Source: a bacterium (GTDB lineage Bacteria > Bacillota_I > Bacilli_A > RF39 > UBA660). Taken from it: a stretch of DNA of 34,878 nucleotides. Location of the stretch: assembly GCA_029012525.1 (NCBI GenBank), contig JAQXMG010000059.1, positions 1-34,878 on the forward strand, in the 5' to 3' direction. This document shows positions 5,662 to 31,696 of this stretch, piece after piece. Each line of letters begins with the position of its first letter. Position 1 is the first letter of the stretch. Both the position numbers and the translations under genes were made by a program. Below the pieces are notes generated by a model. That model was not told the origin of the DNA, searched no databases, and was given only the letters and a program-made list of their open reading frames with translations.

Positions 5662-5703
5662 TATTTTCTCCCTTCTTACTACCACGCAAGTATATTATAA
5701 TAC

Positions 5704-11610: not shown

Positions 11611-12173
11611 TATAATTCTTCTACATTTTTATTTCTTGCAGGTTTTACTTTTTCTTTTTTCTCTGTTTTTATTTCTTTGACTACTTCATATATTTCATAT
11701 ATAAATATGAACAATACAGGCATTATAACAAATAGTAAGAAGCCCCATCTTGATTCTAAAGCTTTTAATATTCCTCCAATACCATTATAAACTTTTGCAT
11801 TTTCTAATGTACCTATTACATATTCTTGAGATAATAGATAGTTTCCTTCAATTGTAAATGTTGTTTCATTTTCAATTGTTTCTGTTTGTAATACTTTTGA
11901 AAAACTAACATCTACTTGATTAGCATAAGTGTTATAAAAGAAAATATGTTCTCCACTTTCTATTTCATTTTTAACATCATGTTTTACAACTACCAAATCT
12001 CCTTTTTTAAGTCCATTTCCTAATTTGTCATCTTCAACAATTATTAATGAACTATTTTTAAATGTTGTAATATTATATTTATTATAATTAAGCAAACAAG
12101 TTGTTAAAAATATAACTGTTGCAACATAAATAAATATTAATATTCCAAATACTACTTTTAACGTTTTTTTCAT
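11610..12173 (-). CDS. SipW-like pseudo-peptidase (topology kept, catalytic residues lost)
   Basis: Same layout as the two SipW copies: N-terminal TM, beta core, C-terminal TM, and a charged tail ending NVEEL. However, EDDKLGNG replaces GSMxE, FSKVL replaces THRIV, and IEGNY replaces KGDAN. The likely start is ATG 12173 (MKKTLKV), behind GGTGGT; the track start at 12218 is a TTG with no SD. Confidence 0.6.
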   Translation of the reverse strand: MKKTLKVVFGILIFIYVATVIFLTTCLLNYNKYNITTFKNSSLIIVEDDKLGNGLKKGDLVVVKHDVKNEIESGEHIFFYNTYANQVDVSFSKVLQTETIENETTFTIEGNYLLSQEYVIGTLENAKVYNGIGGILKALESRWGFLLFVIMPVLFIFIYEIYEVVKEIKTEKKEKVKPARNKNVEEL

Positions 12174-12223
12174 TATTACCACCATAAAAATTATATCACG
12201 TATATTTTTAATATGCAATTTTT

Positions 12224-13747: not shown

Positions 13748-13871
13748 TATTATCACCACTAGATAACTTTTCCATATCACTTTCTAATTTGTTTATAAAT
13801 TCTGTTATTTCTTTATACATCTCAATTAAATCGTTATTATCTAATTCCTTTGCTTTTACATCTTCCATCAT
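13740..13871 (-). CDS. candidate 43-aa acidic micro-protein (not in the ORF track)
   Basis: ATG at 13871 lies 5 nt after GAGGT. Translation: MMEDVKAKELDNNDLIEMYKEITEFINKLESDMEKLSSGDNND. Its TAA overlaps the ATG of the next gene (ATGATTAATG arrangement). It sits 24 nt after the giant gene's stop. Confidence 0.4.
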   Translation of the reverse strand: MMEDVKAKELDNNDLIEMYKEITEFINKLESDMEKLSSGDNND

Positions 13872-16800: not shown

Positions 16801-19800
16801 ACTGTTACAACAGAATTATTATTTTCTTCAGTACCAGTATTAGCAGCATTACCACCACCGAATATGTGATTTGAAACTTTTGTTGTTCCGGTAACATTTA
16901 ATACTGAATTGCCACTTACTATAGCACTTTGTCCATTGCCACCACCATAAATACTACCATATACGTTTGAATTTGATACTGTAACATCGGTATTTCTATT
17001 AACACCAGCTTCATTTCCTCCACCAAATATATCCTTGCTTATATTAGATGATGTGATATTTAATTTTGTTTCTCCAACTTGAGCTTTGTTACCACCACCA
17101 TAGATAGTATCAATAGTACTATCTGTAATTACTAAATCTGTTTTGTTAACATTTCCTCCTAAGTTGTTACCACCATATATAGTTCCAATAGTAGATGTAC
17201 TTTGTACATTTATATTTGTTTGTTCAACAGTTCCACTACTATTTGAACCACCATATAAATTGTTTATTTTACTATTTTCAACATTGATTTGTGTTGTTGT
17301 AACATCAGCTTTGTTACCACCACCAAAAACGTTTTCTATTTCATTAGTTATATCTTTTATTAAAATATCACTTTCAGTTGCTACAGCCTCATTACCACCA
17401 CCATAGATAGTATTTATAGTTCCATCTGTTACATCAATATCAGATTTTGTAACAATTCCTCCCAAATTATTACCACCATAGATAGTATTTACAACACCAC
17501 CGGTTATATTTATATCTGTTAAAGGTACATTACCTAGAGTATTTGAACCACCATAGATATTACCACAGTTTCCTGATGTTAAATTTATATTTGTTTTTGT
17601 AGTTATATTAGCTTCTTCACCACCACCAAATACATTTGTTATTGTAGCTCCTTGAATATTTACATTTGTTTCGTTTGTTACTGCTTTTTTACCGCCACCA
17701 TAAATTGTTGCTGCAGTTCCTGTTATAGCATTAATATTGGATGTTTCAAGACTTCCACCAAGATTATTTCCACCATATATAGTTTCAACATTACTGCCTT
17801 GTAGATTTATATTACTTTGTCTAACATTTCCACTACTATTTGAACCACCAAATACTATTTGAGGATTATCTCCATTAAGTTCTATATTTGTTTCATTTAA
17901 AACATCAGCTGCATTACCACCGCCATAGATAGTATCTACTGATGAACCATTTATATAAACGTTAGTAGTTGTTGTTGTAGCGATATTTCCTCCTCCATAA
18001 ATTGTTTCTATATCACCATTATTTAGAATAACATTACTTACATTTGTTGTTCCTCCCAAATTATTACCACCATAGACATTGTTTGCTGTTCCACTTTCTA
18101 TTAAGACATTGGTTTCCAAAACATCTCCAAGTTTATTTGAACCGCCAAAAAGATTTTCTGTTATGTTAGAACCATCAAGTTTTACATTTGTTTCATTAGC
18201 TCCAGCTTCATTTGAACCACCATAAACATTATTTGCTGTTCCTCCATAAAGATTAACATGTGTTGTTAAAACTCCAGTTTTGTTTCCTCCTCCATATATA
18301 TTAGTACAAACTCCATCGTTTAAATTAACAGTTACTATACCATTTGGTGTGCCTGATGTATCATTTCCACCATAAACATTTGTGATTATACCATTATTTA
18401 TATCGACATCTACATTACCACAAACATATGGTATTATATCGCTACTTCCTTCTCCACCACCAAATACATTTGTTATATTTCCATTATTTACTACTACTTT
18501 TGTATTGTAACTAGATACACTTGTAGTTTGAGATGTTCCATTAACACTACCATATGCACTTCCACCATATACACTATTTATAGTAGGTCCAGATGTTTCG
18601 GTTCCTATTGTTACATTTACATCTTCAGTTACAAATGTTCCAATATTATTTTGATTTAAATAACCACCTTTACCACCACCATATACTGAGCCTCTTACTT
18701 CTCCTCCAAGTATATTAACATTTGTCTTGCCATATACAGTTCCAAGTTCATTACTTCCACCATAAATAGAGTTATTAATAATTCCATCTGTCATAGTAAT
18801 AGTTACATTAGCTTTGGTTGTAGAATTACCTGCGCCATTATTGTTTCCACCACCATATACTGAATCATCTATTTGACCACCATTTATCTTTATTATAGTT
18901 GTTGTTGAGTTTTGTGATGATACAACTCCTGTTGCACCATAATTTCCACCACCATATACTGAGCCTCTAATATGACACATATCATTAATTATAATATATG
19001 AATTATCATTTGATCCTATTGTTGATGAACCTTGTTTTCCATTTCCAATACCAAATACACTTCCAGATTCTGCTCCATATAATTTATTTTGATTATTTAC
19101 AAGAGTTTCATCTCCTATTTCTGCTACTCCTCCGATATAAATATAGCTACTACCATTAAGTTTACCATCACCTTCACTTGCTTCATAACCATTTGATCCG
19201 CCAAATACAGAATATAAAACTTTTCCTCCAGTTATTTGAACAATTCTATTACCATATGTTGCCGTTTGTCCTGCTCCTGATGTTATCATTGATACTTCTC
19301 CACCTGTCATATATATATACGTATCATTGTAATTACTTCTTGAACTACTTGTTAAGGGTCCTCCGATTAAGTTGTAAATGCTTCCACCTTCTACAACTAT
19401 TTTTCTTGCTGCATAGTGTGTTCCACCCATTCTTCCACCAACATATATACCGGCTGTATAATCAGTTTTACCTTGTCCATATATACCACTTTTAACTGTT
19501 AATGAAAAAAGTATTCCTTCATCGCTATCTGAATAATAGTTATCATTCCATGCTCCACAAGCACAATAATATAAAATCAAATTATTGTTATTATCTGTTA
19601 CTCTATCATAATCATTTCCATAAATCGCTTCTGCCTTTATATATATATTTTGATGGCTTGAATTTTGATTACTAGTATTTGTTATAGACATAGTTTGGTA
19701 ATATCCACTTTCAATAATAAATCTATATTTTGTCAAAGAAGTTCTACTTCCAACATTACTTGTTGTATTATTTCCACCTAATATAGATCTAAATGTAGCA

Positions 19801-21314
19801 TAGTTACTTTGTTTTTCTATTCCTCTTCCTATTTTTACATTTTGATAGTTACCATAAAAATATCCAGTTGCTGTAGTACTAGATGATGGTGAATTATTTA
19901 AAGTATAATTTTGTCCTGATGATATTGTTATATATTCAATTCTTGTTGCATTATAGCATTTTACATATGTTCTTGAAATATTCCAAGTCGGATTATAATT
20001 TGTACCATTATCTATTCCTCTTAATGTAAATGGTTTATCATGGCTACCCCAAGAATCACTTCTACTTTGTGTCATAACTAAAATATTAGTATCTCTTGTT
20101 ACAAGATAATAATAATCATCATCTATATTTAGTTTATTTTCAATTCCATTTGCATCATAATAGTTTATAAGTTCATAAACACTACATGTACTATAATTAC
20201 AGTTACCACTTAATTTATTACCATCTTCATCATAATAGTCTGACATATCACTTTGATTTGTAATTTCTTTTAACCTGTAAAATCCTGACATATTAGAATT
20301 TTTATCAAATGAATTGTAGTATGTTTCGTTAACACTTGTAGGTTCTAAAGTGGATGGTATATCAACAATTTGCATTCTATTATTTTGCAATTCGTAGTAA
20401 TCTTTTTCCTCATCATAAATATCGCTTTCTACTTCTTCATAATAAGTACAACCGCCCCAAGTTCTACATCTACAGTTTCTGTTAGTAAGACTTCCATTTG
20501 CATTATACATGTTAGCACAACTGCTACCATTTGCTACTAAAACGCTATTATAATAATTGCCTACCAAATCATATCTATATTCAATTTCATAAGCTTTAAT
20601 TTCTTTCATTCCCGCATTATCTAAAGTATTTATTGCAGTACTCCATGCTGTTGAACCAAGTAACACTTTATTAGCACTTACATAACTGGCATTAAATGTA
20701 ATTGTTATATCATTTGGAAGTCCATTACTATTGTACGTCACAGGTATTTTTGCGTATCTTACATAATATGTATTATCAAAGCTTAGTTCAACGTTTTCAT
20801 AATTTGTTATCCATCCATTAAAAGCTAAATCGTTTGGAATATCTGCAAAAGGATTATCTATTAATTCCAATAAAACGTAATCATCAAGCTTTGATTCTGT
20901 TTCATTATCTAATACATTTAATATTTTGTAATATATATACTTACTTTGTCTTTCGTTTAATCCAACATAACTTTTTTCATTATATATTAAGTCTTGACTA
21001 TCATAAGTAATATTTAATCTAACTAAATTTTTATTACTATATATTTTTTTATCTTCAGTTGTAGGGAGCGTGCCATCATTATCTGTATAATTTAAACCAG
21101 TATAATAATACCAATCTCTCATATCATCATTAACATATACAGTATCTCCAGATACCCCACTATTTATACTATTGGGATTTGTTACATAATCTCCATATGT
21201 TTTAAAGAAAGTAGTAACTAGAATAATTAATAAAGAAAATACTGGAAGTGTAAAAATTATTTTAAGTTTAATATTTGGACTTAATTTTTTTATTTTTTTT
21301 ATTAACTTTTTCAT
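13896..21314 (-). CDS. giant exported surface protein (2472 aa): SipW-type signal anchor, Cys-containing N-terminal region, ~30-coil beta-helix-like repeat region, ~850-aa beta-rich C-terminal region
   Basis: Single uninterrupted ORF with SD AGGTAGGTGA. The N-terminus is KIIFTLPVFSLLIILVTTFFKTYGDYVTN. The central repeats are (V/I)(Y/F)GG(G/S/N)N. There is no LPXTG and no choline-binding or S-layer motif at the C-terminus. Confidence 0.9.
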   Translation of the reverse strand: MKKLIKKIKKLSPNIKLKIIFTLPVFSLLIILVTTFFKTYGDYVTNPNSINSGVSGDTVYVNDDMRDWYYYTGLNYTDNDGTLPTTEDKKIYSNKNLVRLNITYDSQDLIYNEKSYVGLNERQSKYIYYKILNVLDNETESKLDDYVLLELIDNPFADIPNDLAFNGWITNYENVELSFDNTYYVRYAKIPVTYNSNGLPNDITITFNASYVSANKVLLGSTAWSTAINTLDNAGMKEIKAYEIEYRYDLVGNYYNSVLVANGSSCANMYNANGSLTNRNCRCRTWGGCTYYEEVESDIYDEEKDYYELQNNRMQIVDIPSTLEPTSVNETYYNSFDKNSNMSGFYRLKEITNQSDMSDYYDEDGNKLSGNCNYSTCSVYELINYYDANGIENKLNIDDDYYYLVTRDTNILVMTQSRSDSWGSHDKPFTLRGIDNGTNYNPTWNISRTYVKCYNATRIEYITISSGQNYTLNNSPSSSTTATGYFYGNYQNVKIGRGIEKQSNYATFRSILGGNNTTSNVGSRTSLTKYRFIIESGYYQTMSITNTSNQNSSHQNIYIKAEAIYGNDYDRVTDNNNNLILYYCACGAWNDNYYSDSDEGILFSLTVKSGIYGQGKTDYTAGIYVGGRMGGTHYAARKIVVEGGSIYNLIGGPLTSSSRSNYNDTYIYMTGGEVSMITSGAGQTATYGNRIVQITGGKVLYSVFGGSNGYEASEGDGKLNGSSYIYIGGVAEIGDETLVNNQNKLYGAESGSVFGIGNGKQGSSTIGSNDNSYIIINDMCHIRGSVYGGGNYGATGVVSSQNSTTTIIKINGGQIDDSVYGGGNNNGAGNSTTKANVTITMTDGIINNSIYGGSNELGTVYGKTNVNILGGEVRGSVYGGGKGGYLNQNNIGTFVTEDVNVTIGTETSGPTINSVYGGSAYGSVNGTSQTTSVSSYNTKVVVNNGNITNVFGGGEGSSDIIPYVCGNVDVDINNGIITNVYGGNDTSGTPNGIVTVNLNDGVCTNIYGGGNKTGVLTTHVNLYGGTANNVYGGSNEAGANETNVKLDGSNITENLFGGSNKLGDVLETNVLIESGTANNVYGGNNLGGTTNVSNVILNNGDIETIYGGGNIATTTTTNVYINGSSVDTIYGGGNAADVLNETNIELNGDNPQIVFGGSNSSGNVRQSNINLQGSNVETIYGGNNLGGSLETSNINAITGTAATIYGGGKKAVTNETNVNIQGATITNVFGGGEEANITTKTNINLTSGNCGNIYGGSNTLGNVPLTDINITGGVVNTIYGGNNLGGIVTKSDIDVTDGTINTIYGGGNEAVATESDILIKDITNEIENVFGGGNKADVTTTQINVENSKINNLYGGSNSSGTVEQTNINVQSTSTIGTIYGGNNLGGNVNKTDLVITDSTIDTIYGGGNKAQVGETKLNITSSNISKDIFGGGNEAGVNRNTDVTVSNSNVYGSIYGGGNGQSAIVSGNSVLNVTGTTKVSNHIFGGGNAANTGTEENNNSVVTVNITGSEVGGNVYGGANTAKVYGITNLNIGYVTSSVENLEKGNIIIDGTVFGGGEANASGSTEYDFSFISVTTGINMNLNAEGHDKYEIKGSIFGSGNASSSGGYSYINISNYGTKENPMKNISIQRSDIVTISNSYIELNGATDRTNEYSNVLFSLSRIGHLKIKNNTNIYLVNGTNMLQKFSSLVDIDGEENLSQVVIDDNGNVTKNVDNRIYIWEGKNINIAENESVSAYGKVSGMTFFGLYNHDRNGNIETAMYDSQYNSLDSVSSNDIYYFSDGSYVLGLHETNHDITVNGFYTNYENEDNQGTIIQKYINPTPDDANYYMWVVGEVVASYEIDLIASKYSTLGAVELPLINFSTPNTVFTVVGFSYSELDQDVTLTDSNDIPRISDEADTKMSLVMESSNTGWMNYGKTTFYTDDANSNPYSGSTSYYSENSSTVPSLLFYLYHSKNLQTEKNMGSVTISLQVSTPISPIENKVERLNIVVHLQRALYQTNEYEGAISAGRKYDLFATTATNVTTTSSISTYYSLYAESERNLYKDGYHHVLVSSFSLPVNTRITMIDYADMENPEYYYYVVSQDDYDSSLEEYNNYSEVSYEFSKFIKMGSNSTTNNFNESEKQNIYYHEDIKKALEEFVFIIDFSESNITEDKLNETLLIELRDGNNQVLIGVLGIQQRVMGYSLYKDTNALIKVDAELDKDRMYVGHKNDITVTLSFTQTKLSSGIVVQDTNYYEKKLGLKISLKDQNGNKVNGYDLMGTFIIYNGISYSPRMDGSYRISVADKVSNVQSILTFDTTNSSLSSGLYTIVIESFGSGDGIYYGLTSSDTKEINLEIVNAIYGLNVTADETQITIDKTTGKNLNDSTSSVFNIKYASGLSNPNLRISLKRRNYDSIYSTNYDLVDLKDYISDNLSSTNNEYEYLVTDSIPASLNYYIHFKENLTTGTYKLYFSLYDGNNYIGDVYKYIFIK
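16500..19450 (-). repeat. in-frame coding tandem repeats (~75-nt units, ~300-nt four-unit super-repeat) inside the giant gene
   Basis: About 31 occurrences of [YF]GG[GSNA]x spaced ~25 aa apart. Units cycle as FGGG(N/E)xA / YGGSNxxG / YGGNNLGG / YGGGNxA between ~17000 and 17860. An identical 20-mer, ACCACCACCATAGATAGTAT, occurs at 17091-17110 and 17394-17413 (303-nt offset). Confidence 0.85.
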
Positions 21315-21343: not shown

Positions 21344-22354
21344 TTATGCCGGATTTGTTGATAATTTTAATGTTAATTTAGCATCTCCAACTGATGCTTC
21401 ATTTTCACAATCAACATCTTGTCCTTCTATCCAGATATATATTCTTATTTTACTTACCCCACTTGGTAAATCAAATATTTTTTCATAGCTATCTCTATTT
21501 GTTTTAGTTGCATAATCTATATCTACTTTTTTAAATTTTGTACTATTTTTTTCTTCCGTTGCTTCGCTTAATGAAATATTATCTTCTCTTGTTATTTCAT
21601 CCGTTACGCCATCATAATTTATTTTTGCTCCATTCTCTTTAGTAGTTACAATACCATATGTATTAAGAGCATTAAAAACTCCTCCATCAGTATGAGTATC
21701 ATAATTTGGTTCCCAAATATATGGCTTTGTTGCGTTTTTTAATGCTTGAGATATTAAATAGTTTGTTTCTTTAGGTACATTTCCTTCATTTAAAAAAGCA
21801 ATTCTAAAAGCATTTTCAATACCGACTGTTTTTTCACCATTAAAAGTAACTCCAGAATCTGTTGTCAGATATAAATTTTGAGGAGATGATGTTCTTAAAA
21901 ATATATCAAACACAATAAATTTACCACTGCTTAAAACACCATATCCAAATTCTTCAATGCTTCTTGTTGTTGTTAATAAAAAATTTCCATTTATATCATC
22001 ATTTGTTGCAATTCCATGATACAATTTTAAGAAACCATTTTCATCGATAAATCCTCCTGTTGATACAGGTTCTAAATAAAGAGGTATTTGATTTGTACTT
22101 GTTTGATAAGTTGTATCTTTAACTTCAATAAGTTCACTTGTTGTAATAGATGCTTTCCAGTTTAGTGCATCTGCTGATATATCTATTCCTCCAACTGTTG
22201 CAACCTTTATATCAAGAGAATCAATTGTAACCATTCTATTCGCAGAAAACCAAGCATATGATGATGCTGAAAAAAGTAATAATGTTCCAAGCATCAATAA
22301 TAATAGTAAAAATAATCTGTTTTTTTCCTTCTTTTCTTCTTTATATTCTTTCAT
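21344..22354 (-). CDS. exported protein with SipW-cognate signal peptide, large TasA-superfamily-like paralog B
   Basis: 336 aa. The N-terminus is KNRLFLLLLLMLGTLLLFSASSYAWFSANR. It is colinear with 8649-9755 throughout. SD AGAGGTAA lies 9 nt after the upstream stop. Confidence 0.8.
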   Translation of the reverse strand: MKEYKEEKKEKNRLFLLLLLMLGTLLLFSASSYAWFSANRMVTIDSLDIKVATVGGIDISADALNWKASITTSELIEVKDTTYQTSTNQIPLYLEPVSTGGFIDENGFLKLYHGIATNDDINGNFLLTTTRSIEEFGYGVLSSGKFIVFDIFLRTSSPQNLYLTTDSGVTFNGEKTVGIENAFRIAFLNEGNVPKETNYLISQALKNATKPYIWEPNYDTHTDGGVFNALNTYGIVTTKENGAKINYDGVTDEITREDNISLSEATEEKNSTKFKKVDIDYATKTNRDSYEKIFDLPSGVSKIRIYIWIEGQDVDCENEASVGDAKLTLKLSTNPA

Positions 22355-22363
22355 AATTACCTC

Positions 22364-23062
22364 TTAATCAACAAAATGTTCATCCCTTATTTTAATATGC
22401 AATTTTATTTCTCCACCTAAAATATCATCAAGGCAATCAGGATCATCACCTTCAAGCCATATAACAATCGTATACTTATCAACTTCATTTGGATTAAATA
22501 ATCTTCTTTGTCTAACAAATGCTTTATCTTTGCTATAAAAAGGAATTGTATTTTCTTCTGGTAGACCTGTTATATTATTTATTTTAGCATAAATTGTTTT
22601 TTCACCATTTTCATAAACCATTACCCTTAATGCTTCATCAACATTTTTTATAACATCATCTATATAAAGTTCAGTCCAATAATCTACTACATCTTCTCCC
22701 ACATTTTCAACATAGTAAGTATATGCTATATAATTGTTTCCATTATGACTGCCGTCTTTTTCATTATCAATATTACTTGGTATCCAATCAACTGATATAT
22801 TATCCAAAAAATCTATTTTACCTGCACTTAATTTAACTTGTGGTTCTTTATATCTTATATCTTCATATAATACTAAATTTTGTTTTAAAGTTGTATTCTT
22901 ATCCAAACTTATTGTAAAACGTCCTCCATTATATGTTACTTCTAATATAAAATAAAGAATAATTAGAAAAATTAGTAAAAATAACAAAATCCATTTAGCT
23001 TTTTGATAAAACTTTTTTCTCGTTTTAATTCTATTTGCTTTTACTAATACTTCTTTAGCCAT
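22364..23062 (-). CDS. membrane-anchored/exported protein, shorter relative of the large paralogs (~232 aa)
   Basis: The TM segment WILLFLLIFLIILYFILEV is followed by TYNGGRF. The C-terminal YTIVIWLEGDDPDCLDDILGGEIKLHIKI matches the W.EG.D.DC motif of 8649-9755 and 21344-22354. The likely start is ATG 23062 (MAKEVLV), behind TAGGAGAG. Confidence 0.7.
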   Translation of the reverse strand: MAKEVLVKANRIKTRKKFYQKAKWILLFLLIFLIILYFILEVTYNGGRFTISLDKNTTLKQNLVLYEDIRYKEPQVKLSAGKIDFLDNISVDWIPSNIDNEKDGSHNGNNYIAYTYYVENVGEDVVDYWTELYIDDVIKNVDEALRVMVYENGEKTIYAKINNITGLPEENTIPFYSKDKAFVRQRRLFNPNEVDKYTIVIWLEGDDPDCLDDILGGEIKLHIKIRDEHFVD

Positions 23063-23253
23063 ATATGCTCTCCTATCATTATATATTATAAATATAATAA
23101 TACCATAAAATATGACAAAAAACAACATTTATAAAAGTCTTTGTATTTACATATTTTTTGTAAATAAAATGTCATAAATTTACATAATAATTGTCTTATT
23201 GTTTACATTAATTGTATAATAATAATGTAAGAATATATAAGGAGGGATAAATA
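23063..23253. promoter_or_regulatory. divergent promoter region with four ATTTACA repeats
   Basis: Plus-strand promoter: TTGTCT (23191-23196), 18 nt, TATAAT (23215-23220), then SD AAGGAGGG and ATG 23254. Minus-strand candidate: TTGTTT, 17 nt, TGGTATTAT. ATTTACA occurs at 23145-23151, inverted at 23159-23165, at 23178-23184, and as GTTTACA at 23201-23207. Confidence 0.5.
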
Positions 23254-23847
23254 ATGATTAAAATTAAAAAATTTAGATTATTAATCGCATTTATTTCTCT
23301 TTTAATGTGTTTAACATTTATACAAGACACTTATGCCAAATATGTTAACAATGTAAATGGTGAAGCCAATCTTACAATTGCAAGATGGAAAATACTTGTT
23401 AATAATGAAGATATTACAACTGGTTCTTTAGCACAAGAAGTTATAACTCCAGTTTTTAGTGGTACTGATTATATAAAAAGTGATGTTATAGCTCCTACAT
23501 CAACTGGTTATTTTGATATTATTATAGATGCCAAAGATACTGATGTTTCATTTAACTATACTATAACTGTAAACACTTCTTCAGAAAGTAGTGTAACAGA
23601 TCTTGTTACAACAGGTTATTCTATAAATGATGGTGAAGTTATTAATTTTGAAAATTATAATGAAAATATAACGGGTACTATAGATTATAATACAATAGAT
23701 ATTACAACAATTAGAGTATATGTAATGTGGAATGATAGTGATTCTAATAATATGGATAATAATGCAGATACAATTGCTGCAACAACTGAAGAAAGTAAAG
23801 CTTTGTTAAATGTATCACTTTCATTTATTCAAAATAAAGGAGAATAA
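23254..23847 (+). CDS. small TasA/camelysin-superfamily-like exported protein (197 aa); the only plus-strand gene
   Basis: Strong SD. The signal peptide ends with QDTYAKYVNN. Then come IARWKILVNN and APTSTGYFDIIIDAKDTDVSFNYTITV, and the last strand is LLNVSLSFIQ. It is a paralog of 11041-11610. Confidence 0.8.
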   Translation: MIKIKKFRLLIAFISLLMCLTFIQDTYAKYVNNVNGEANLTIARWKILVNNEDITTGSLAQEVITPVFSGTDYIKSDVIAPTSTGYFDIIIDAKDTDVSFNYTITVNTSSESSVTDLVTTGYSINDGEVINFENYNENITGTIDYNTIDITTIRVYVMWNDSDSNNMDNNADTIAATTEESKALLNVSLSFIQNKGE

Positions 23848-23912: not shown

Positions 23913-24518
23913 TTATTCTTCAACTTGTACAGCAGTTATTTTAACAACTAAGCTTATACTTGGAACACTTGGATTACTTTTTTTAAAAAGATATGCTTTA
24001 TTACCCCAATATGTATCTTCATCATCATCACCACTTTCATAAGGCCATGTAACTGATAAAGAAAATTCTCCCGTTCCACCATGTGATTCCATTAATTGAT
24101 TATCCGTATTAAAAACAACTTTAAATGGATAGTCATTAGCTAATTTGTTTGATAATTCTTCACTTGTAAGAAGAGGTCCTGTTTGATATATATCTCCTAA
24201 AATAGAAGCACTAATTATTTCATATGAAAAATTTGCTCTTGTCTCACTATTATTTGTGGCAGTTATTTTTTGAAGATAGTCAGTCATACCAGGATATAAT
24301 TCTGTTATATCAAAATTTATTTCTTGTGAAAGCTCTGTACTTCCAACTGTAAATGATACATTCCAAGCTTTTACATGAGCTGTTATATTTGAATCAACCT
24401 TTGTTGTGTAAACAAACCACGCAAAAACATTTGTTGACAAAAGAAAGAATAAAAGTAGTATAGTTGATAATTTAGTTTTTTTGAATACTCTTTTTATTAT
24501 TTCTAATACATCTTTCAT
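23913..24518 (-). CDS. small TasA-superfamily-like exported protein (201 aa)
   Basis: The signal peptide ends with TNVFAWFVYTT. Then come VKAWNVSFTVG and LYPGMTDYLQKITATNNSE (compare TasA LKPGDKLTKDFQFENNGS, recalled). The last strand is LVVKITAVQ. The ATG overlaps the sipW copy-3 stop (TAATG). Confidence 0.75.
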   Translation of the reverse strand: MKDVLEIIKRVFKKTKLSTILLLFFLLSTNVFAWFVYTTKVDSNITAHVKAWNVSFTVGSTELSQEINFDITELYPGMTDYLQKITATNNSETRANFSYEIISASILGDIYQTGPLLTSEELSNKLANDYPFKVVFNTDNQLMESHGGTGEFSLSVTWPYESGDDDEDTYWGNKAYLFKKSNPSVPSISLVVKITAVQVEE

Positions 24519-25141
24519 TATAATTCTTCCTCTTCATCATCTTTCTTTTTATTATTTTCTTTTTCCATACGTTCTTCTTTTTTTTCTTCAATTATTTTTA
24601 TAATTTCTATAAACACTAGAACAACAATTGGCACAAATAAAAGAAAATAAAATCCATAGACATTATTGACAATTTTCGATATAAAACTTAATACATAAGT
24701 CTTATATATGATCTTTCCTATTATTTGATCTTCACTAATTACAGGATCTTCTGTTGGATTTGCTATGCCCTTTGTTACAAAAGAATATTTTCCATTTTTC
24801 ATTTCCTTTTTTATTACTTGATGGGCTACTATTTTTCCAGCAAAATCATCTTCTTTGCCATTATATACAACATCGTCATAAACTTCTATATCACTTGCTT
24901 TTACTTCTTTTGCTAATACCATATCTCCAACATTATATTTTGGCTCCATACTACCTGTTACTATAGTAAATAATCTATATCCTCCTAAAGAAAGATTATT
25001 ATTAGAAAATTTTTGAATCATTATTAAAGCCATTATTAGTACAATAAATATTGCTATAACTGCTTTTATAAAACCAATTGTAAATTTAACAATATCTTTT
25101 TCCATTATATCATTATATTTTATTTTTATTTTTTCTATCAT
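24518..25141 (-). CDS. sipW: SipW-type signal peptidase I, copy 3
   Basis: N-terminal TM, VTGSMEP (Ser), VAHQVI (His), TKGIANP (the Asp of GDxN is replaced by Ile), a C-terminal TM, and a charged tail ending DDEEEEL. The ATG overlaps the upstream stop (ATGA). Confidence 0.8.
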   Translation of the reverse strand: MIEKIKIKYNDIMEKDIVKFTIGFIKAVIAIFIVLIMALIMIQKFSNNNLSLGGYRLFTIVTGSMEPKYNVGDMVLAKEVKASDIEVYDDVVYNGKEDDFAGKIVAHQVIKKEMKNGKYSFVTKGIANPTEDPVISEDQIIGKIIYKTYVLSFISKIVNNVYGFYFLLFVPIVVLVFIEIIKIIEEKKEERMEKENNKKKDDEEEEL

Positions 25142-26247
25142 ATTAATTCTGCCTCACTTACTTTTTTTATGTATTCATTAAGATGTTTTTTAAATCTTCT
25201 TTGAATTTCCATATCATTTTCAATATTTTTATATTTTATTACTGCATATTGTTTACTTACAATATTTTTCAACTGTTCTTCACTTAAAGATTCATTAACA
25301 TCTAATACTTTTGATACCATATTAGCAATTAATTTTTCTGATACTTCTTCTTTGTTTATTTCTTCTTTTTTAGAATCTTTATTTAGTGATGACATTACTA
25401 AATAATTTAACATCATCGTTTCATCAATATATTTTTTCAAATCTCCATTATCATTGTAATCTTTTTTTTCTTTTACATTCGTACCATTTTCATCGATATT
25501 TTCTTGCATATAATTCCACAAATCAAGTGCATATTGGAAATTAACATTTTTTAAAATCATATTAGTCTTTTTTATAGGAGAAGTAACAAGTGCAATATGT
25601 AATTTATCAATGCTTTTGTAAACATCAGCCCTTGTTAAATCTGCTATTTTAACTTCTAGATTTGATATTCTATCTTCAATATTATTTCCCTTTAATTTGT
25701 CGTTTTTCTCTGATTTTAAATTTAATGATATGTTAACATTTTCTTTGCCAACTTTTGTTACACCATTATATGTTAAAAATTTATTATCTTTGCAAAATGA
25801 ATCTTGTATTCCTGATGATTTTTTTCTAGCAATATAAAATTGCATATTTTTTATTAAACTATAAATAAATCTATTTTCATATGTATTAAAACTTTCTTCT
25901 TTATTTATATTTAGTATTTTAGATGGTCTTACATCTCCAGTTTTTTTGTCATAATCTTGAATAAGGTTTGTATTACGCGATAAGTGTTTTATACTTTCAA
26001 CTGTTATTCTTCTTGCAAGTTCTATTTTCACAACATCTTCTTCATTTACTATAAATCTGTTGGGATTTCTTAATATATTATCAAGATATGGTATAGTTAA
26101 TTCCATTTTATCTATCCAACCAGTATCTGTTTCAACCTTATTGTAATCTAATTTTACATTTAAAGCAGAATCAATATTATTATTAAATGATTTAATTTCA
26201 TTTGTATTACTACTGTTATAAAACTCTAATACTTTTAAATCATCCAT
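25138..26247 (-). CDS. McrC-like (DUF2357-type N-terminal region) protein without a recognisable nuclease domain
   Basis: 369 aa. FNTYENRFIYSLIKNM resembles E. coli McrC NEDTLANRIIKSTLAIL, and KNVNFQYALDLWNYM resembles KNTRYYKFVISVCKFI (both recalled). The last ~130 aa are charged and helical and lack a D...(D/E)xK motif (compare McrC ILIVDAKYY). Strong SD AGGAGGTAG. Confidence 0.5.
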   Translation of the reverse strand: MDDLKVLEFYNSSNTNEIKSFNNNIDSALNVKLDYNKVETDTGWIDKMELTIPYLDNILRNPNRFIVNEEDVVKIELARRITVESIKHLSRNTNLIQDYDKKTGDVRPSKILNINKEESFNTYENRFIYSLIKNMQFYIARKKSSGIQDSFCKDNKFLTYNGVTKVGKENVNISLNLKSEKNDKLKGNNIEDRISNLEVKIADLTRADVYKSIDKLHIALVTSPIKKTNMILKNVNFQYALDLWNYMQENIDENGTNVKEKKDYNDNGDLKKYIDETMMLNYLVMSSLNKDSKKEEINKEEVSEKLIANMVSKVLDVNESLSEEQLKNIVSKQYAVIKYKNIENDMEIQRRFKKHLNEYIKKVSEAELI

Positions 26248-26269
26248 ATACTACCTCCTAACTGCTAAA

Positions 26270-27793
26270 CTAAGCTAATTTCTTTAATCTTAATAAATAT
26301 TCTTTACACTCTTTAAACTCAGTCTCTCCAAATTTATCATCTAAGAATTTTATAAATCCATCTATTTCATCTCTTATATAAGAAATGTTTAATTGTTCAA
26401 ATTTTCTTAATACTTTACGTGCCATAAAATAATCTATACCATTGAGTTCAGTTCCTCCTGCTGCTTTATATACAGGTACAAATTTTTTCATATGGGCAAC
26501 GATACGATTACCAAAAGCAATACGGAAATGTTTTATTACATAGTCATCCATTTCTTCAATTTTCTTTAATGAGCTTTCTGTTATTTTATAATCATTTATT
26601 GCAGTTTGAAATAAATTATCAAGATATGAATAATTTATATTTTGTGCATCTGTATCTATTGGTTCAAATGCTTTACCTTTATCATTTATATCTATTGGCA
26701 TAGCACGGTCGTATACTTTATCGGTTACCATAAATGTTGAATCATCGTTATTGATTGTTCCAATATACCAAACATTTGGAGATATTTTTAGCTTTCCTCC
26801 GATTATTTTTTTAGGGTCATTTTTCCATTTGCTTGGTACAAGTTCAACTATCCACTCATCTTTATTTGGCATTTCAAGTATTGATAACATTTCTGCAAAG
26901 TAATACTCAACACGTGATATATTCATTTCATCTAGTATTACAGTATAGATATCATCTGTATATCCTGCCATATATATTTCTTTTAATACTTCAGTTTCAT
27001 TGAATTTTTTAGTAAATTCGTTAAAATATCCAAAAAGTTCTGTACGATCTCTCCATGATGGCTGTACTGATGCTACACATGAATCATGCTTTAAAAATTT
27101 TCCCCAAGCATACGCAAGAGATGTTTTACCAGTACCAGATATACCTTGTAAAATTATAAGTTTTGTTGATGCAATAGCAGATATAAAAAGTCTTATCATT
27201 TCAACAGAATAATATAATCTAAGACGTGAAGCAGCAAAGTTTCTAAATAAATTAACTAGTTCTTCAAGTGAGAAGGTATTTCCATAATTTTGAATTTTGT
27301 AATCTTTAAATTCTTCATCTATCTCATTTAGTTTAGCAAATCTTATACCTAAATTTTCTTCTTCTTCTACTTTTTCAAGATTTTGTTCCTCATTTGGATC
27401 TTCACCTGGTTTTAATCCAAGCTGTGATACTTTCATTGCTAATATATCTTGTTTTTCTTTTGTCATTGTTGCAACTTCTTTATTTAAAGTTGCAATTTCT
27501 TCTAACATATCCTCTTGTTCTACCAAAGTTTTTCTAAATCTTAAATATTTTTTTACTAAAAAATAAATTATAAAAACAATTGCTGATAATAATATTAAAA
27601 GTAAAATAATTGTTAAAGCAACAAATACCCATTCTGCCCCATTAAAATCATTTTTATAATCATTAATTATTTTAATATACGAACCTATATTAAAGGTATT
27701 TTTAATTCCTACTACTATACTTTTTAAAAAAATAACAAATCCGGAAAAAAATTGTTGTAAAAATTCGTATAAAAATCTTATAAATGTATCCAT
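26270..27793 (-). CDS. membrane-anchored McrB-family AAA+ (GTPase-type) protein
   Basis: Two N-terminal hydrophobic helices (FFSGFVIFLKSIVVGI; WVFVALTIILLLILLSAIVFIIYFLV) are followed by a charged coiled-coil-like linker and then an AAA core: LIILQGISGTGKTS, VQPSWRDRTELFGYF, VILDEMNISRVEYYFAEMLSILE, YIGTINNDDS, DRAMPIDI. The core is colinear with E. coli McrB GPPGCGKT / QFHQSYSYEDF / IIDEINRANLSKVFGEVMMLME / IIGLMNTADRS / RRRFSFIEI (recalled). The likely start is ATG 27793 (MDTFIRF), behind AGGAGGT. Confidence 0.8.
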   Translation of the reverse strand: MDTFIRFLYEFLQQFFSGFVIFLKSIVVGIKNTFNIGSYIKIINDYKNDFNGAEWVFVALTIILLLILLSAIVFIIYFLVKKYLRFRKTLVEQEDMLEEIATLNKEVATMTKEKQDILAMKVSQLGLKPGEDPNEEQNLEKVEEEENLGIRFAKLNEIDEEFKDYKIQNYGNTFSLEELVNLFRNFAASRLRLYYSVEMIRLFISAIASTKLIILQGISGTGKTSLAYAWGKFLKHDSCVASVQPSWRDRTELFGYFNEFTKKFNETEVLKEIYMAGYTDDIYTVILDEMNISRVEYYFAEMLSILEMPNKDEWIVELVPSKWKNDPKKIIGGKLKISPNVWYIGTINNDDSTFMVTDKVYDRAMPIDINDKGKAFEPIDTDAQNINYSYLDNLFQTAINDYKITESSLKKIEEMDDYVIKHFRIAFGNRIVAHMKKFVPVYKAAGGTELNGIDYFMARKVLRKFEQLNISYIRDEIDGFIKFLDDKFGETEFKECKEYLLRLKKLA

Positions 27794-27803
27794 GTTATAC
27801 CTC

Positions 27804-28775
27804 CTAATATACAACTATATTTGTTCTATCCTTTAGTTCTTTAAAGTTATATTTTTCATCATTTATTATTATATAATAAAACATATTTAATTGTAATAAT
27901 ATTTTATCATTTGTTATAAAATCATCATCAATTATTAATGCTATTTTATATCCATTACTAATCATTTCTTTTATATTTTTTTCCATCACTTTAAATTCTT
28001 TATAAGTAATTTTAAATATAAATCTATCTTTTATTAGATCATTATCTATTATTTTAAATAGTCTTTTTATCTTTTGGTCTTTAGAAAATATAGTATAATC
28101 AAAAGATAATAAATAATATTTATTTGGCTTACAATATATAGTATCATTTAAAAGTTCAAAGCTTAACATATAATAACACGCAAATATTTTTTGCTCATTT
28201 ACTAAATCTCTTTGATACGCTTTATTTATTGCAAAATTGCTATAAATTTCTGGAAATTTAATATTATATTTAAGACTTGTATCATATAAATTTTTAATGT
28301 TTGTTTTTTTATAATCTAAATAAAAATCATTTGTTTTAAATGAAGAGAAAAATTCATCTTTTCTTTCAAAAGCACTTTTTATTTCTTGTTCTATTATTTT
28401 ATTTTGTTCTTTGTTTTCTTCAACTAACGTATTTTTAAATAATATTATTTCATTAATTAAATCATTATTATATTCTACCATTTCTATTAGATTTTTTGCA
28501 TACAAAAACATTTTATAATTAACATCTATTTCGTCTTTATAATATAAAGTTTCTTTATTCATAGTATTTTTTAAATTTTCAAAATTTTTTTGAATCATTA
28601 TACTTTTAACCCTAGAATCTGGGGCATAGAAATCATAAAAATTATAGGAAATATAATTATTTATAAATTCATCTACAATATCTTTTATATAATATTTTTC
28701 TAATATCATTTTGCAATAGTTATGAATCATTTTTTTAAAATATGACGTATATGTATCTATAATATTTTTTTTCAT
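27804..28775 (-). CDS. cytoplasmic protein of unknown function (323 aa); C-terminal half possibly a degenerate EAL-like fold
   Basis: No TM or signal peptide. The C-terminal RFIFKITYKEF...ISNGYKIALIIDDDF...LLQLNMFYYIIIND loosely follows the EAL pattern l.lEiTE...L...G..ialDDFG...L..l..d.iKiD, but without the catalytic residues. It lies 3 nt after the upstream stop. Confidence 0.6.
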   Translation of the reverse strand: MKKNIIDTYTSYFKKMIHNYCKMILEKYYIKDIVDEFINNYISYNFYDFYAPDSRVKSIMIQKNFENLKNTMNKETLYYKDEIDVNYKMFLYAKNLIEMVEYNNDLINEIILFKNTLVEENKEQNKIIEQEIKSAFERKDEFFSSFKTNDFYLDYKKTNIKNLYDTSLKYNIKFPEIYSNFAINKAYQRDLVNEQKIFACYYMLSFELLNDTIYCKPNKYYLLSFDYTIFSKDQKIKRLFKIIDNDLIKDRFIFKITYKEFKVMEKNIKEMISNGYKIALIIDDDFITNDKILLQLNMFYYIIINDEKYNFKELKDRTNIVVY

Positions 28776-28778
28776 AAA

Positions 28779-29729
28779 TTACCTACTTTCAAAGTTTATT
28801 ATTGATGTTTCATTTACAATAGGATAAGTGTAATTATTTGCAGGATTTACTTTGTAAAATCTAACCATTGATGATGATATCGCATCAATTTTATAAGTAT
28901 ATCCACTGATATAACTATTTCCATCAATTATTGTATTTGTTTCGTTTTCTTTTATTAAATATGATGGATTTGTTAAATCAAGTCTTACTATATTTGGATC
29001 AAATGTTAATGTTATATAAGCAGAATAGCATTTTTCTTTTTTAGAATCTGGAAGATTTAAGTATGTAGTTATATCTAGCCTATCTCCAACTTGATAAGAA
29101 TCAAAAGCTTCTTCTACTGTATAATAATCTATTGTATTAGTTATTCTAAACTCTAAATATGGGCTTTTTTCTTCGTCTGTTATTTCATAAGATAAACCTA
29201 TTTTACCAACCTTTAAAATAAATCTTGCAGAAATTGTTTTTTCATATGGATAAGTAGATGTAGCAGATACATATATTAATACTGTATCGCCATCGTTAAA
29301 TGATGTATTTGGAGTTACTACTATATTAAATGAATCAGTATTGGTAGAACTATATATTGTTCCTTGTGTTTTTGTAATCTGACATGTAACTGTATCAGAG
29401 CACTGATAGATAATATCATAAGTTATATCTGTATCTGATGATAATAAATTATTTTTAATACTATTCATATTTATATTAATTGTATATTCTCCTGCACCAG
29501 CCCAATTTTCTAAACTATATGTTGCTGTTTGTTCCTTTAGTTTATCGCTATTAAAATAGAATTTTTTTGTTTGAAAATAAAAAGTTTGAATTCCATCATA
29601 AATATATCTACCAAATGTTGTACAACAAGTTATAACAAGTAATAAAACACCAATTAAAATTATTAATTTTTTATTTTTTAACATTTTGATATTAATCTTT
29701 TTTATACATTTACATCTCATATAATTCAT
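28779..29729 (-). CDS. exported beta-rich protein with SipW-type signal anchor (316 aa)
   Basis: LIILIGVLLLVITCCTTFGRYIYDG is followed by FYFNSDKL (compare AFYLLKEDY in 9859-10419). The start is uncertain: ATG 29729, or ATG 29720, which has better spacing from AGGA. Confidence 0.7.
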   Translation of the reverse strand: MNYMRCKCIKKINIKMLKNKKLIILIGVLLLVITCCTTFGRYIYDGIQTFYFQTKKFYFNSDKLKEQTATYSLENWAGAGEYTININMNSIKNNLLSSDTDITYDIIYQCSDTVTCQITKTQGTIYSSTNTDSFNIVVTPNTSFNDGDTVLIYVSATSTYPYEKTISARFILKVGKIGLSYEITDEEKSPYLEFRITNTIDYYTVEEAFDSYQVGDRLDITTYLNLPDSKKEKCYSAYITLTFDPNIVRLDLTNPSYLIKENETNTIIDGNSYISGYTYKIDAISSSMVRFYKVNPANNYTYPIVNETSIINFESR

Positions 29730-29748
29730 TCCTTTATTGTATATAAAA

Positions 29749-29777
29749 ATTATAACACATTATAAATTATTATTCTA
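29749..29777 (-). promoter_or_regulatory. candidate extended -10 promoter for the 29729-23913 operon
   Basis: The minus strand reads TAGAAT (29777-29772), 17 nt, TGTTATAAT (TATAAT at 29754-29749). It lies directly downstream of the tsf terminator. The -35 element is weak. Confidence 0.35.
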
Positions 29778-29790
29778 TATAAATTTAATA

Positions 29791-29821
29791 ACAAAAAAAT
29801 TCAAAGTTTCAACTTTGAATT
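29791..29821 (-). terminator. Rho-independent terminator after tsf
   Basis: 11-bp inverted repeat AATTCAAAGTT (29798-29808) / AACTTTGAATT (29811-29821). On the minus strand it is followed by T7 (plus-strand A-run 29793-29799). Confidence 0.7.
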
Positions 29822-29828
29822 TTACATA

Positions 29829-30713
29829 TTAATTTGTTCCATTAACTTGATTCATTACTTCTTCAGCAAAGTTATCACATCTTTTTTCCATGCCTTCGCC
29901 TACTTCGTATCTTATCATACTTACGATAGAACAATTGTTATTTTTAGCATATTGTTCTACAGAAATATTTGAATCTTTAATAAATGGTTGTTCTACTAAA
30001 CATACTTCTTTATAGTATTTTTTAATTCTACCTTCAACCATTTTTTCAGCTATATCAGCTGGTTTTCCTTCATTCATAGCTTGTTCTTTATAGATTTCTC
30101 TTTCTTTATTTAGAACTTCTTCTTCTATCTCAGAACTTCTAACATAAGATGGATTCATTGCTGCAACATGCATAGCGATATCTTTGGCAACTTCTTTATT
30201 ATCTCCATCTAATACTACTAAAGAAGTAATTCTACCACCCATATGTGAATAAATTCCAAATACTTGATTATCAGATTTTTCTACTCTTTCAAATCTTCTA
30301 AAGCTAATTTTCTCACCAATTTTAGCAGTAAATGCTATAACCATTTCTTCAATAGTTTCATTAGTATTTTCTACTACTAATTTATCAGCTTCTTCTATAG
30401 TTTTAACATCATTTTTAAGTAATGTATTAACAATATTTGTTAATAAAGTTTTAAATTCACTATTTCTTGATACGAAGTCAGTTTCACAATTTACTTCTAC
30501 AATTGCTGCTACATTATTATCTTCAACTGCTTCACTTAAACCTTCAGTAGCAATTCTTGATGCTTTTTTTTCTGCTTTTGAAATGCCTTTTTCACGAAGC
30601 CAAGTAATAGCTTCTTCCATATTACCATTAGTTGCATCTAGTGCTTTTTTACAATCCATCATTCCAGCACCAGTTTTTTCTCTTAAATCTTTTACGTCTT
30701 TTGCAGTAAACAT
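29829..30713 (-). CDS. tsf: translation elongation factor Ts
   Basis: 294 aa. N-terminal UBA-like VKDLREKTGAGMMDCKKAL, followed by the typical EF-Ts core. Confidence 0.95.
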   Translation of the reverse strand: MFTAKDVKDLREKTGAGMMDCKKALDATNGNMEEAITWLREKGISKAEKKASRIATEGLSEAVEDNNVAAIVEVNCETDFVSRNSEFKTLLTNIVNTLLKNDVKTIEEADKLVVENTNETIEEMVIAFTAKIGEKISFRRFERVEKSDNQVFGIYSHMGGRITSLVVLDGDNKEVAKDIAMHVAAMNPSYVRSSEIEEEVLNKEREIYKEQAMNEGKPADIAEKMVEGRIKKYYKEVCLVEQPFIKDSNISVEQYAKNNNCSIVSMIRYEVGEGMEKRCDNFAEEVMNQVNGTN

Positions 30714-30724
30714 AAAATTCCTCC

Positions 30725-31696
30725 TTATTTTAACGCATCAATTAATTCTTGTTTTTTCATTGTGCTATAGCCTTTAATATTGTTTTCTTTAGCCATAGCT
30801 TTCAATTCTGTTAAAGTTTTATCAGCAAGATTTACATCATTTTCTTTTTTATTAACTTTTGCTTTTACTTCTTTTATCTTTTCTTTAGTATCTTCTTCTT
30901 TGTCAATAAATTTCATTTCTTCTTTGATGTCTTTTACTTCTTTAACAGCTTTTTCCATAATGTTTTCTTTAGAATCTTTTTTAGCATCTTCATTAGATAC
31001 ATAATTAATTACTTCTTTGCCATAAACTTCTGCAACAGCATTAGCTAAAACACCAATTACTAGTTTTACGCTTCTTACTGCATCGTCATTAGCAGGAATA
31101 ACATAATCAACCATATCTGGATCGCAATTAGTATCTACAATACCAAATACTGGAATATGTAATTTTCTAGCTTCTTTTATTGCTGTTTCTTCTTGTCTTG
31201 GATCTACAATAACTAAAGCATTAGGAAGTTTTTTCATTTCTCTAATTCCGCATAAGTTACGATTTAATTTTTCATATTCTTTCTTTAACTTGATTACTTC
31301 TTTTTTTGGTAAAACTTCAAATTTTCCTTCTTTTTCCATATTTTCAATTTCATCAAGTCTTTTAATTCTACTTCTTATGGTTTTGAAGTTAGTTAAAGTT
31401 CCTCCTAACCATCTTTCAGTAACATAATACATACCAGTTCTTTCAGCACTTTCTTTCATAGCTTCATTAGCTTGTTTTTTAGTACCTACAAATAAAACTG
31501 TACCTTCATTTTGTGCTATTTCTTTTAATGCAGCATATGCTTCTTCAATTAAAGCTGCTGTTTTTTGTAAATCGATTATATAAATATCATCACGTGATGT
31601 ATAAATATATTCTCTCATTTTTGGATTCCATCTTCTTTTTTGATGTCCGAAGTGAACTCCTGCTTCTAATAAATAATTCATTGATACTACTGTCAT
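30725..31696 (-). CDS. rpsB: 30S ribosomal protein S2 with a ~95-aa C-terminal extension ending in a Rho_N/HeH-like module
   Basis: [19 protein letters not shown]...GTLTNF...IVDTNCDP is canonical S2. At 323 aa it is longer than the usual ~240-260. The tail ends [30 protein letters not shown]. Confidence 0.95.

Follow-up and report, generated by a model that had tools for sequence, protein, structure and literature searches.

The 34,878-nucleotide stretch of DNA analysed here (the window) is from contig JAQXMG010000059.1 of the RF39 (UBA660) assembly GCA_029012525.1, and all coordinates are those of the window. It encodes a membrane-anchored GTPase of the McrB type (26270-27793) and a nuclease-less McrC-like partner (25138-26247), which were found together with a SipW-type signal peptidase in one closely packed, minus-strand run of genes for putative secreted fibre proteins. 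Judged from its sequence, this system is a new member of CoCoPALM, a named and uncharacterised class. The pair probably acts as a GTP-driven assembly or control module, either a motor or a gating device, for a surface fibre or adhesin that is processed by SipW. A preliminary description of this DNA had left the choice between a co-opted fibre device driven by nucleoside triphosphate hydrolysis and an abortive-infection module; the former is favoured here.

Comparison of the 507-residue AAA protein with the PDB as a single sequence gave three Escherichia coli McrB sequences as the sole matches at E ≤ 10 (E = 0.008-0.015). When a profile of 26 relatives was used, the top three places were again taken by McrB (best E = 2e-5). 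The Pfam family AAA_5 was matched by 22 of the 26 family members, the window protein itself being missed. These results bore out the earlier claim of colinearity with the McrB AAA core and placed the protein inside the McrB/AAA_5 clade. The GTPase domain and its C-terminal helical lid (residues 151-507) are encoded at 26270-27343 and the N-terminal part (residues 1-150) at 27344-27793. The window protein carries a Walker A motif (GISGTGKTS), a Walker B motif (ILDEMN), the signature N348-N-D350-D and R363. Residues G217, G220, G222 and K223 of Walker A, D288 of Walker B, N291, R294, E296, N348, D350 and R363 were invariant across the AAA family, and E289 of Walker B was nearly so. Nearly all of 150 representatives, taken from clusters at 50% identity, contained the signature motif GT[AI]N-x-D-[DE]-ST, in which the aspartate at the third position was invariant and the next residue was D or E, with Q, G or A in rare cases. 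The signature had previously been read as NxxD; it is in fact N-x-D(D/E), and by this motif the protein belongs to the NxD branch, not to the NxxD branch of canonical McrB. The invariance of both Walker motifs and of N348, D350 and R363 makes it probable that the GTPase is enzymatically active.

No DNA-binding family was found by Pfam in residues 1-150 of the AAA protein. Hydropathy analysis identified a strong transmembrane helix at residues 56-80, whereas residues 12-30 were weakly hydrophobic. Of the two hydrophobic N-terminal helices originally proposed, the second was therefore well supported, as were the charged linker and the missing DNA-binding domain, and the first was doubtful. The helix is followed by a basic KKYLRFRK stretch and then by a charged helical linker of approximately 40-60 residues; because residues 56-80 precede KKYLRFRK, the GTPase domain is predicted to be cytoplasmic. 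Weak profile matches of the N-terminal region were obtained to subunit b of ATP synthase (E = 0.026 in one search and 0.0036 in another) and to FtsL (E = 0.14). Pfam DivIC was matched by one of the 26 relatives, and homology to FtsB was undetectable with Pfam. No coiled coil was called in the linker by a crude heptad scan, a heuristic too coarse to decide the matter. Relatives of the protein carry either one or two, or three to five, transmembrane helices.

The 369-residue product of the gene directly downstream was matched by Pfam DUF2357, the N-terminal domain of McrC (E = 1.6e-9; core at residues 55-142), as were all 35 of its relatives. No Pfam nuclease family was matched in this protein or in the 35 relatives. 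Its AlphaFold2 model, which was of moderate quality (predicted local distance difference test score, pLDDT, of 66.6), showed residues 151-184 as a long beta-hairpin and the last 100 residues or so (269-365) as entirely helical; this tail is highly charged. A Foldseek search of the PDB with the model, at this pLDDT, returned no structure of the PD-(D/E)xK or HNH type. The matches that were returned, TolC for example, were discarded as meaningless (E > 0.01, template-modelling score, TM-score, < 0.15), so that this search neither confirmed the McrC fold nor revealed a nuclease. Sequence and profile searches against the PDB gave zero matches. The earlier assignment as a McrC-type protein was supported by the DUF2357 match, and no nuclease fold was found in 25138-26247. 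In the monomer, the most conserved stretch of the protein, residues 54-131, was modelled with the lowest confidence, which would fit a segment that becomes ordered only inside a ring.

The two genes are embedded in a compact series. The gap between g316 (28779-29729), the first gene of the operon, and g323 (27804-28775) is 3 nucleotides; that between g323 and the AAA gene is 10 nucleotides, with an AGGAGG ribosome-binding site ahead of the ATG at 27793, and the 22-nucleotide gap between the AAA and McrC-like genes also contains AGGAGG. The stop codon of the McrC-like gene overlaps the start of sipW-3 (24518-25141) as ATGA, and sipW-3 overlaps the gene for the small secreted protein T201 (23913-24518) as TAATG. 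Gene positions, gaps and overlaps were thus as first described. No terminator-like site was found on the minus strand from 29729 to 21344. The product of sipW-3 matched TIGR02228 well above the model cutoff (E = 3.9e-22; 78.8 bits against 51.85) and also matched the SipW model (2.1e-18); it is an archaeal/SipW-type signal peptidase I with N-terminal and C-terminal transmembrane helices, which confirmed its proposed identity. The operon encodes three SipW paralogues, all of which finish in an acidic EEL tail. The idea that this tail is a conserved docking motif was dropped, since only three of 174 SipW open reading frames of relatives end in [DE][DE][LIVMF]; the tail is probably lineage-specific.

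A scan of one genome per species yielded at least 590 confirmed relatives of the AAA protein. Synteny was counted in 83 loci, consisting of the 80 best loci and three others (AAA identity of 46-76%), from metagenome-assembled genomes labelled as Bacilli, 'Tenericutes', Erysipelotrichaceae, Clostridia, Oscillospiraceae or Acutalibacteraceae. Open reading frames in these loci were labelled by phmmer or by hidden Markov models built from the window proteins, with a SipW-core model built from short SipW sequences. In 81 of the 83 loci the AAA gene was followed directly by the McrC-like gene, and a SipW gene was detected with the SipW-core model within 2 kb in 80 of the 83, in both Bacilli and Clostridia. 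The gaps between the AAA and McrC-like genes and between the McrC-like and SipW genes were mostly 0-20 nucleotides, or the genes overlapped. Two arrangements were distinguished: a Bacilli type with the order SipW-T-SipW-T-g316-g323-AAA-McrC-SipW-T-T(inverted)-g254-L-giant, where T and L denote families of secreted proteins, and a smaller Clostridia type with the order EAL-g254-L-SipW-AAA-McrC-giant. In 47 related loci g316 was encoded upstream of g323 and of the AAA gene, and g254 was also present in 47 loci, including the minimal Clostridia-type operon. A small secreted protein in the position of T201 followed SipW in most related loci, and the inversion of T197 was kept in most. In many loci a giant open reading frame followed the module; in the Clostridia type it encoded 1,900-2,600 residues and came directly after the McrC-like gene.

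The association with signal peptidases was not restricted to close relatives. Homologues of about 600 residues with three to five transmembrane helices had a SipW gene within 200 nucleotides in 52 of 83 metagenome loci, the SipW identity being confirmed by NCBIfam. Since SipW adjoins these proteins too, the signal-peptidase link spans the wider transmembrane-bearing family. In about 50 metagenome loci of this type (L097-L163; for example L104:4891-17005), an ABC transporter was encoded after the AAA/McrC pair. The first half of this conserved operon encodes two proteins of about 228 residues, a 340-residue SipW, the GTPase and a divergent McrC-like protein of about 415 residues, and the second half an ABC ATPase, an ABC-2 permease, a protein of about 810 residues and a Flg_new (Listeria-Bacteroides repeat) protein. 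Homologues with transmembrane helices were found with SipW, and not in defence islands. Taken with the membrane anchor, the lack of any detectable DNA-reading domain or nuclease and the SipW synteny, this agrees with the initial view that the pair is not a restriction enzyme.

The GTPase was also the most conserved component of the locus. When median identity to the window proteins was ranked across the 23 loci that held all nine genes, the AAA protein stood at 70.9% and every other operon gene at 29.5-50.5%: g254 at 50.5%, the McrC-like protein at 47.9%, SipW-3 at 47.1%, g316 at 46.4%, the T proteins at 40-42%, the L protein g336 at 39.9% and g323 at 29.5%. The GTPase is the slowest-evolving component of the locus, as suits core machinery more than a defence gene. 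The module was also represented among thousands of metagenomic proteins, mostly from uncultured gut Bacilli and Clostridia.

The nature of g323, which lies inside the region 25138-28775 that was originally highlighted, had gone unremarked. This 323-residue protein is predicted to be cytoplasmic, no transmembrane segment being detected by hydropathy, and consists of an N-terminal helical domain (residues 1-145, approximately) and a degenerate EAL-like domain (approximately 150-323). Pfam and NCBIfam searches matched no family, EAL included, and sequence and profile searches against the PDB gave zero matches. An AlphaFold2 model built with 14 homologues was of good quality (pLDDT 85.5, predicted template-modelling score 0.81), and when it was compared with the PDB by Foldseek, EAL domains, including those of Bd1971, LapD, FimX and MorA, accounted for nearly all of the top 46 or so matches, with an exception at rank 43 (best E = 5.8e-4, probability 1.0, TM-score 0.3-0.44). 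By hhalign, the strand motifs of g323 and of the EAL family of related loci aligned in order (E = 0.04); of the catalytic residues that mark an EAL phosphodiesterase (the Glu of EAL, Asn, ExxE, DD, Lys, EGVE and Q), the Asn and ExxE positions were replaced in g323, and the barrel ended early. When g323 was compared by BLASTP with a genuine EAL protein encoded in a related locus, the result was not significant, the link having come from the structure model alone. The invariant residues of the g323 family were concentrated in the EAL-like half. With these positions replaced and no match to Pfam EAL, g323 is best described as degenerate and EAL-like and not as a phosphodiesterase. It is a candidate receptor for cyclic dimeric guanosine monophosphate (c-di-GMP), or a candidate adaptor.

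In ten of the 83 loci, SipW and g323 were fused into one protein of 630-750 residues that was encoded directly upstream of the AAA gene (for example L052:7748-9916 and L072:7749-10004). These fusions begin with SipW, which scored above the TIGR02228 cutoff (60-63 bits), and continue through a linker into a g323-like domain. One locus, on a short contig, was confirmed to encode a protein that matches Pfam EAL, and EAL-family open reading frames were present in 12 loci in total, mostly of the Clostridia type. The fusions, these reading frames and the g323 model together connect a module of EAL origin with SipW, physically, and with the GTPase, through its place in the gene order.

The preliminary description knew of no comparable system. 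Such a class had, however, already been named: Bell et al. (eLife 2024; PMC11090510) applied the name CoCoPALM to a large clade of NxD-branch McrB GTPases that are fused to an FtsB-like transmembrane segment and a coiled coil and associated with signal peptidases, the McrB and McrC homologues usually both carrying coiled coils. CoCoPALM is treated there in one paragraph, as uncharacterised, with analysis deferred to a later paper, and the term is absent from two supplementary text files of PMC11090510. No follow-up paper on CoCoPALM was found in the literature, and the sole paper that appeared to pair McrB with SipW was rejected, its 'mcrBC' being a strain genotype. The window system shares with the class a McrB/AAA_5 GTPase, an NxD motif followed by D or E, an adjacent nuclease-less DUF2357 partner with a helical extension, and signal-peptidase genes, all in Bacillota. 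Where the definition has an FtsB-like transmembrane segment and a coiled coil, the GTPase of the window has a strong transmembrane helix and a charged helical extension. No defining feature was contradicted, although the helical segments here are short. Placement of the family within the CoCoNuT/CoCoPALM clade was also indicated by a 745-residue relative that lacks transmembrane helices and adjoins UPF1-like helicases, as in CoCoNuTs. The published text (PMC11090510) is silent on an EAL-like partner, on fusions of SipW to an EAL-like domain and on the four-transmembrane, ABC-transporter subtype; these, and the conservation ranking, are additions of the present analysis.

The system shares with E. 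coli McrBC (6UT6, 6HZ4, 7VSR) an AAA_5 core with collinear Walker A and B motifs, a sensor-like Asn and Arg motifs, as well as a partner encoded immediately downstream that carries the McrC N-terminal domain. It differs in that transmembrane helices replace the N-terminal DNA-binding domain, NxD replaces NxxD, PD-(D/E)xK is undetectable in the partner, and the pair is located in a secretion and fibre operon instead of a restriction locus. The CoCoNuT proteins CnuB and CnuC belong to the same NxD GTPase clade, and their McrC homologues often lack an active nuclease. CoCoNuTs are, however, soluble, with coiled coils of several hundred residues, and always include a nuclease (HEPN or other); in the window there is a membrane anchor, no nuclease was found, and the neighbours are SipW and secreted proteins.

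Parallels were also apparent with systems that govern surface appendages. In the FimX-PilZ-PilB and LapD systems, as proposed here, a nucleoside triphosphatase or protease that governs such an appendage is encoded together with a catalytically dead EAL-like domain, which probably acts on it. Unlike FimX and LapD, g323 has no GGDEF, PAS or HAMP domain, its EAL-like barrel appears truncated and its partner is McrB-like rather than a PilB-type ATPase. In the SipW-TasA-TapA operon of Bacillus subtilis and the SipW-BsaA operon of Clostridium perfringens, as in the window, SipW adjoins its secreted substrates, which form polymers in those species and putatively do so here. Those operons contain no McrBC-like pair, and the secreted proteins of the window have no detectable sequence similarity to TasA or camelysin. 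Secretion of BsaA oligomers past the wall of C. perfringens is reported to involve type IV pilus proteins (bioRxiv, PMC11580942), a case that serves only as an analogy, of a SipW substrate that uses additional export machinery.

These observations can be combined into a working model. An N-terminal transmembrane hairpin and a charged helical stalk would anchor the GTPase on the inner side of the membrane, beneath which it would form a ring. By analogy with McrBC, the McrC-like protein, in which a helical tail takes the place of the McrC nuclease, would plug into this ring and stimulate hydrolysis. The ring would contact SipW either directly or, probably, through g323, which would bridge SipW and the GTPase. 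Hydrolysis of GTP in the cytoplasm would be coupled to SipW-dependent maturation and polymerisation of subunits outside the cell and to display of the giant protein; the coupling could drive these steps, as a motor, or permit them, as a switch. If g323 binds c-di-GMP it may also confer a response to this messenger, in the manner of the degenerate EAL receptors that act on other pili and adhesins. The full version of the model, in which a McrBC-derived ring, a nuclease-less plug and an EAL-like adaptor constitute a c-di-GMP-responsive motor or switch for a SipW-dependent fibre and giant adhesin, is put forward tentatively, as something that we consider somewhat short of an even chance.

Several points weigh against an assembly or control role. 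We know of no McrB-family protein that acts on anything other than nucleic acid. Fibres of the Bacillus TasA type assemble without a cytoplasmic nucleoside triphosphatase, so that a fibre of this kind has no evident need of a motor. CoCoNuTs, the closest relatives to have been characterised by prediction, and the PADLOC candidate profile PDC-M26A point to defence, and no experimental study of any CoCoPALM member was found. That the secreted proteins form a fibre is itself putative, since they have no sequence match in Pfam or the PDB. The model of the McrC-like protein is only moderate, so that a cryptic fold could still be concealed in it. The EAL assignment of g323 depends on modest Foldseek scores and a weak hhalign alignment, and, because the catalytic residues are gone, ligand binding by this protein is speculative.

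Three other explanations were considered. The pair might serve export or quality control, the ring pulling on the basic N-terminal tails of precursors, or on signal peptides after cleavage, so as to clear SipW or to feed it, without any control of polymerisation. All of the putative SipW substrates do carry long basic cytoplasmic N-terminal tails ahead of their anchors, in the minimal operon of the Clostridia type the giant protein is encoded directly after the McrC-like one, and the ABC transporter beside the pair in the four-transmembrane sister type hints at transport. The pore of the McrBC ring, however, reportedly holds McrC and not a threaded substrate (structures 6UT6 and 6HZ4); the present data do not separate this explanation, which we regard as unlikely, from an assembly or control role. 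A role that is retained in nucleic-acid metabolism, with the pair acting on the mRNA of the operon or on DNA at the membrane, for example to localise or regulate transcripts for secreted proteins, appears very improbable. Related CoCoNuTs are predicted to target RNA (PMC11090510), and both the McrC-like tail and g518 are highly charged, but no CSD, YTH, OB, zinc-ribbon or nuclease domain was detected in the pair or in neighbouring genes, and transmembrane helices replace the DNA-reading N-terminal domain of McrB.

Defence or abortive infection, in which a membrane-anchored CoCoNuT-like device would sense infection and kill or arrest the cell by way of the membrane or a block in secretion, is quite improbable in our estimation; in one version the pair merely rides in the fibre locus or guards it, for instance where the fibre is a phage receptor. 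Other members of the NxD clade, the CoCoNuTs, are predicted immune systems (PMC11090510). PDC-M26A matched the AAA protein at 2e-32, but the match was confined to the GTPase core and spanned positions 298-438 of the 724 in the profile. Relatives of the GTPase domain were present on 280 plasmid records, but these and other relatives in the plasmid and phage collections shared at most 40% identity and were confined to the GTPase domain, with no full-length homologue among them, in collections that represent these lineages poorly. In a relative of 73% identity (L001:1884-5458), Abi_2 and PhdYeFM/YoeB toxin-antitoxin genes were located approximately 1-5 kb upstream of the fibre locus, which may be an incidental mobile or defence neighbourhood. 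Against such a role, no effector domain was found in any locus gene: Pfam and NCBIfam searches returned nothing from the nuclease, HEPN or toxin families. The pair keeps its place in the operon across at least 80 species of two classes, the slow evolution of the GTPase is the opposite of the rapid turnover that is typical of defence genes, and the neighbouring g323 is fused in some loci to the signal peptidase itself. An assembly or control role in fibre biogenesis is accordingly preferred.

The gene run of the fibre locus lies between tsf (29829-30713) and frr (8003-8548) in a window of about 25% GC in which almost all genes are on the minus strand. The order of transcription is g316, g323, AAA, McrC-like, sipW-3, T201, T197 (on the opposite strand), g254, g336, the giant gene, g518, two sipW/subunit pairs and g368. 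The minus-strand interval after tsf (29730-29828) contains a hairpin with a T-run, a probable tsf terminator, followed by an AT-rich stretch with TATAAT-like hexamers before g316. A promoter scan of this interval gave a score no higher than chance in AT-rich DNA, and the operon promoter is placed there by inference only. Whereas tsf and frr are normally neighbours in an rpsB-tsf-pyrH-frr cluster, here the 21-kb fibre locus splits the two; rpsB and tsf occupy 29829-31696, and the window shows no pyrH. In relatives the locus has different neighbours and a different order of its SipW-T pairs, which means that it has been rearranged or moved.

Secreted or anchored proteins account for most of the remaining genes. 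The 316-residue g316 protein is secreted or anchored, with one N-terminal transmembrane segment or signal anchor (residues 22-40). T201 is a small secreted protein and a putative fibre subunit, and T197 (23254-23847, plus strand) is also small and secreted. They are followed, on the minus strand, by the membrane-anchored g254 (22364-23128), by g336 (21344-22354), a secreted protein of the L family with a SYAWFS N-terminus that is the putative major subunit, and by a giant protein of 2472 residues (13896-21314) with repeated YGG[GS]N units, a putative fibre-borne adhesin. The remaining minus-strand genes encode the cytoplasmic, K/N/E-rich g518 (12224-13780), SipW-2 (11610-12218) with the small secreted protein T189 (11041-11610), SipW-1 (10416-11009) with the small secreted protein T186 (9859-10419), and g368 (8649-9755), a second L-family protein that resembles g336. 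Several coiled-coil-like segments and no family match were noted in g518, which lies beside SipW genes in 21 related loci and may add another coiled-coil protein to the system.

The label 'TasA-like', which had been applied to the small secreted proteins, was not sustained: neither the T nor the L family matched TasA, camelysin or Peptidase_M73 by sequence or profile in Pfam, NCBIfam or the PDB. No Pfam family was found in g316 or the giant protein. Two types of N-terminal motif were recognised just past the signal anchor: AWF, in T201 and the L family, and TY-x-x-Y, in the giant protein (TYGDY), T197 (TYAKY), T189, T186 and g316. The sharing of these motif types suggests common processing and incorporation of the secreted proteins, with two classes of SipW substrate and with the giant protein joining the fibre by a subunit-like N-terminus. 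A further motif, W-x-E-G-x-D-x-D-C, was common to the C-terminal regions of g336 (WIEGQDVDC), g368 (WVEGQDVDC) and g254 (WLEGDDPDC, at its end). It was invariant in the L-family alignment and may be a metal-binding or disulfide site.

Two observations were made outside the fibre locus. A relative of the GTPase domain, without the transmembrane region, is encoded at 40037-41149 of the unannotated human-gut 'Bacteriophage sp.' contig MT835511.1; over residues 175-485 the identity is 35% (E = 6e-58). In the window, a response regulator is encoded on the minus strand at 4891-5685, the C-terminal sequence of which resembles Spo0A by eye, no domain search having been made. If it is Spo0A, this low-GC, small-genome lineage, labelled as 'Bacilli/Tenericutes', retains the master regulator of sporulation.

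McrBC is the textbook DNA-restriction motor, and a widespread and strongly conserved branch of it that no longer reads or cuts DNA and resides in a secretion or fibre operon would show how an immune nucleoside triphosphatase can be recruited to surface biogenesis. The carriers are mostly uncultured gut bacteria with essentially unknown surface structures. The EAL-like partner and its fusion to SipW, which are absent from the published naming of the class, lead to a testable hypothesis, that a complex of signal peptidase and GTPase is under second-messenger control. If the full, c-di-GMP-responsive version of the model is correct, it would be the first function of the McrBC family that does not involve nucleic acid and, for Gram-positive gut bacteria, a previously unknown way of building pili that depends on energy.

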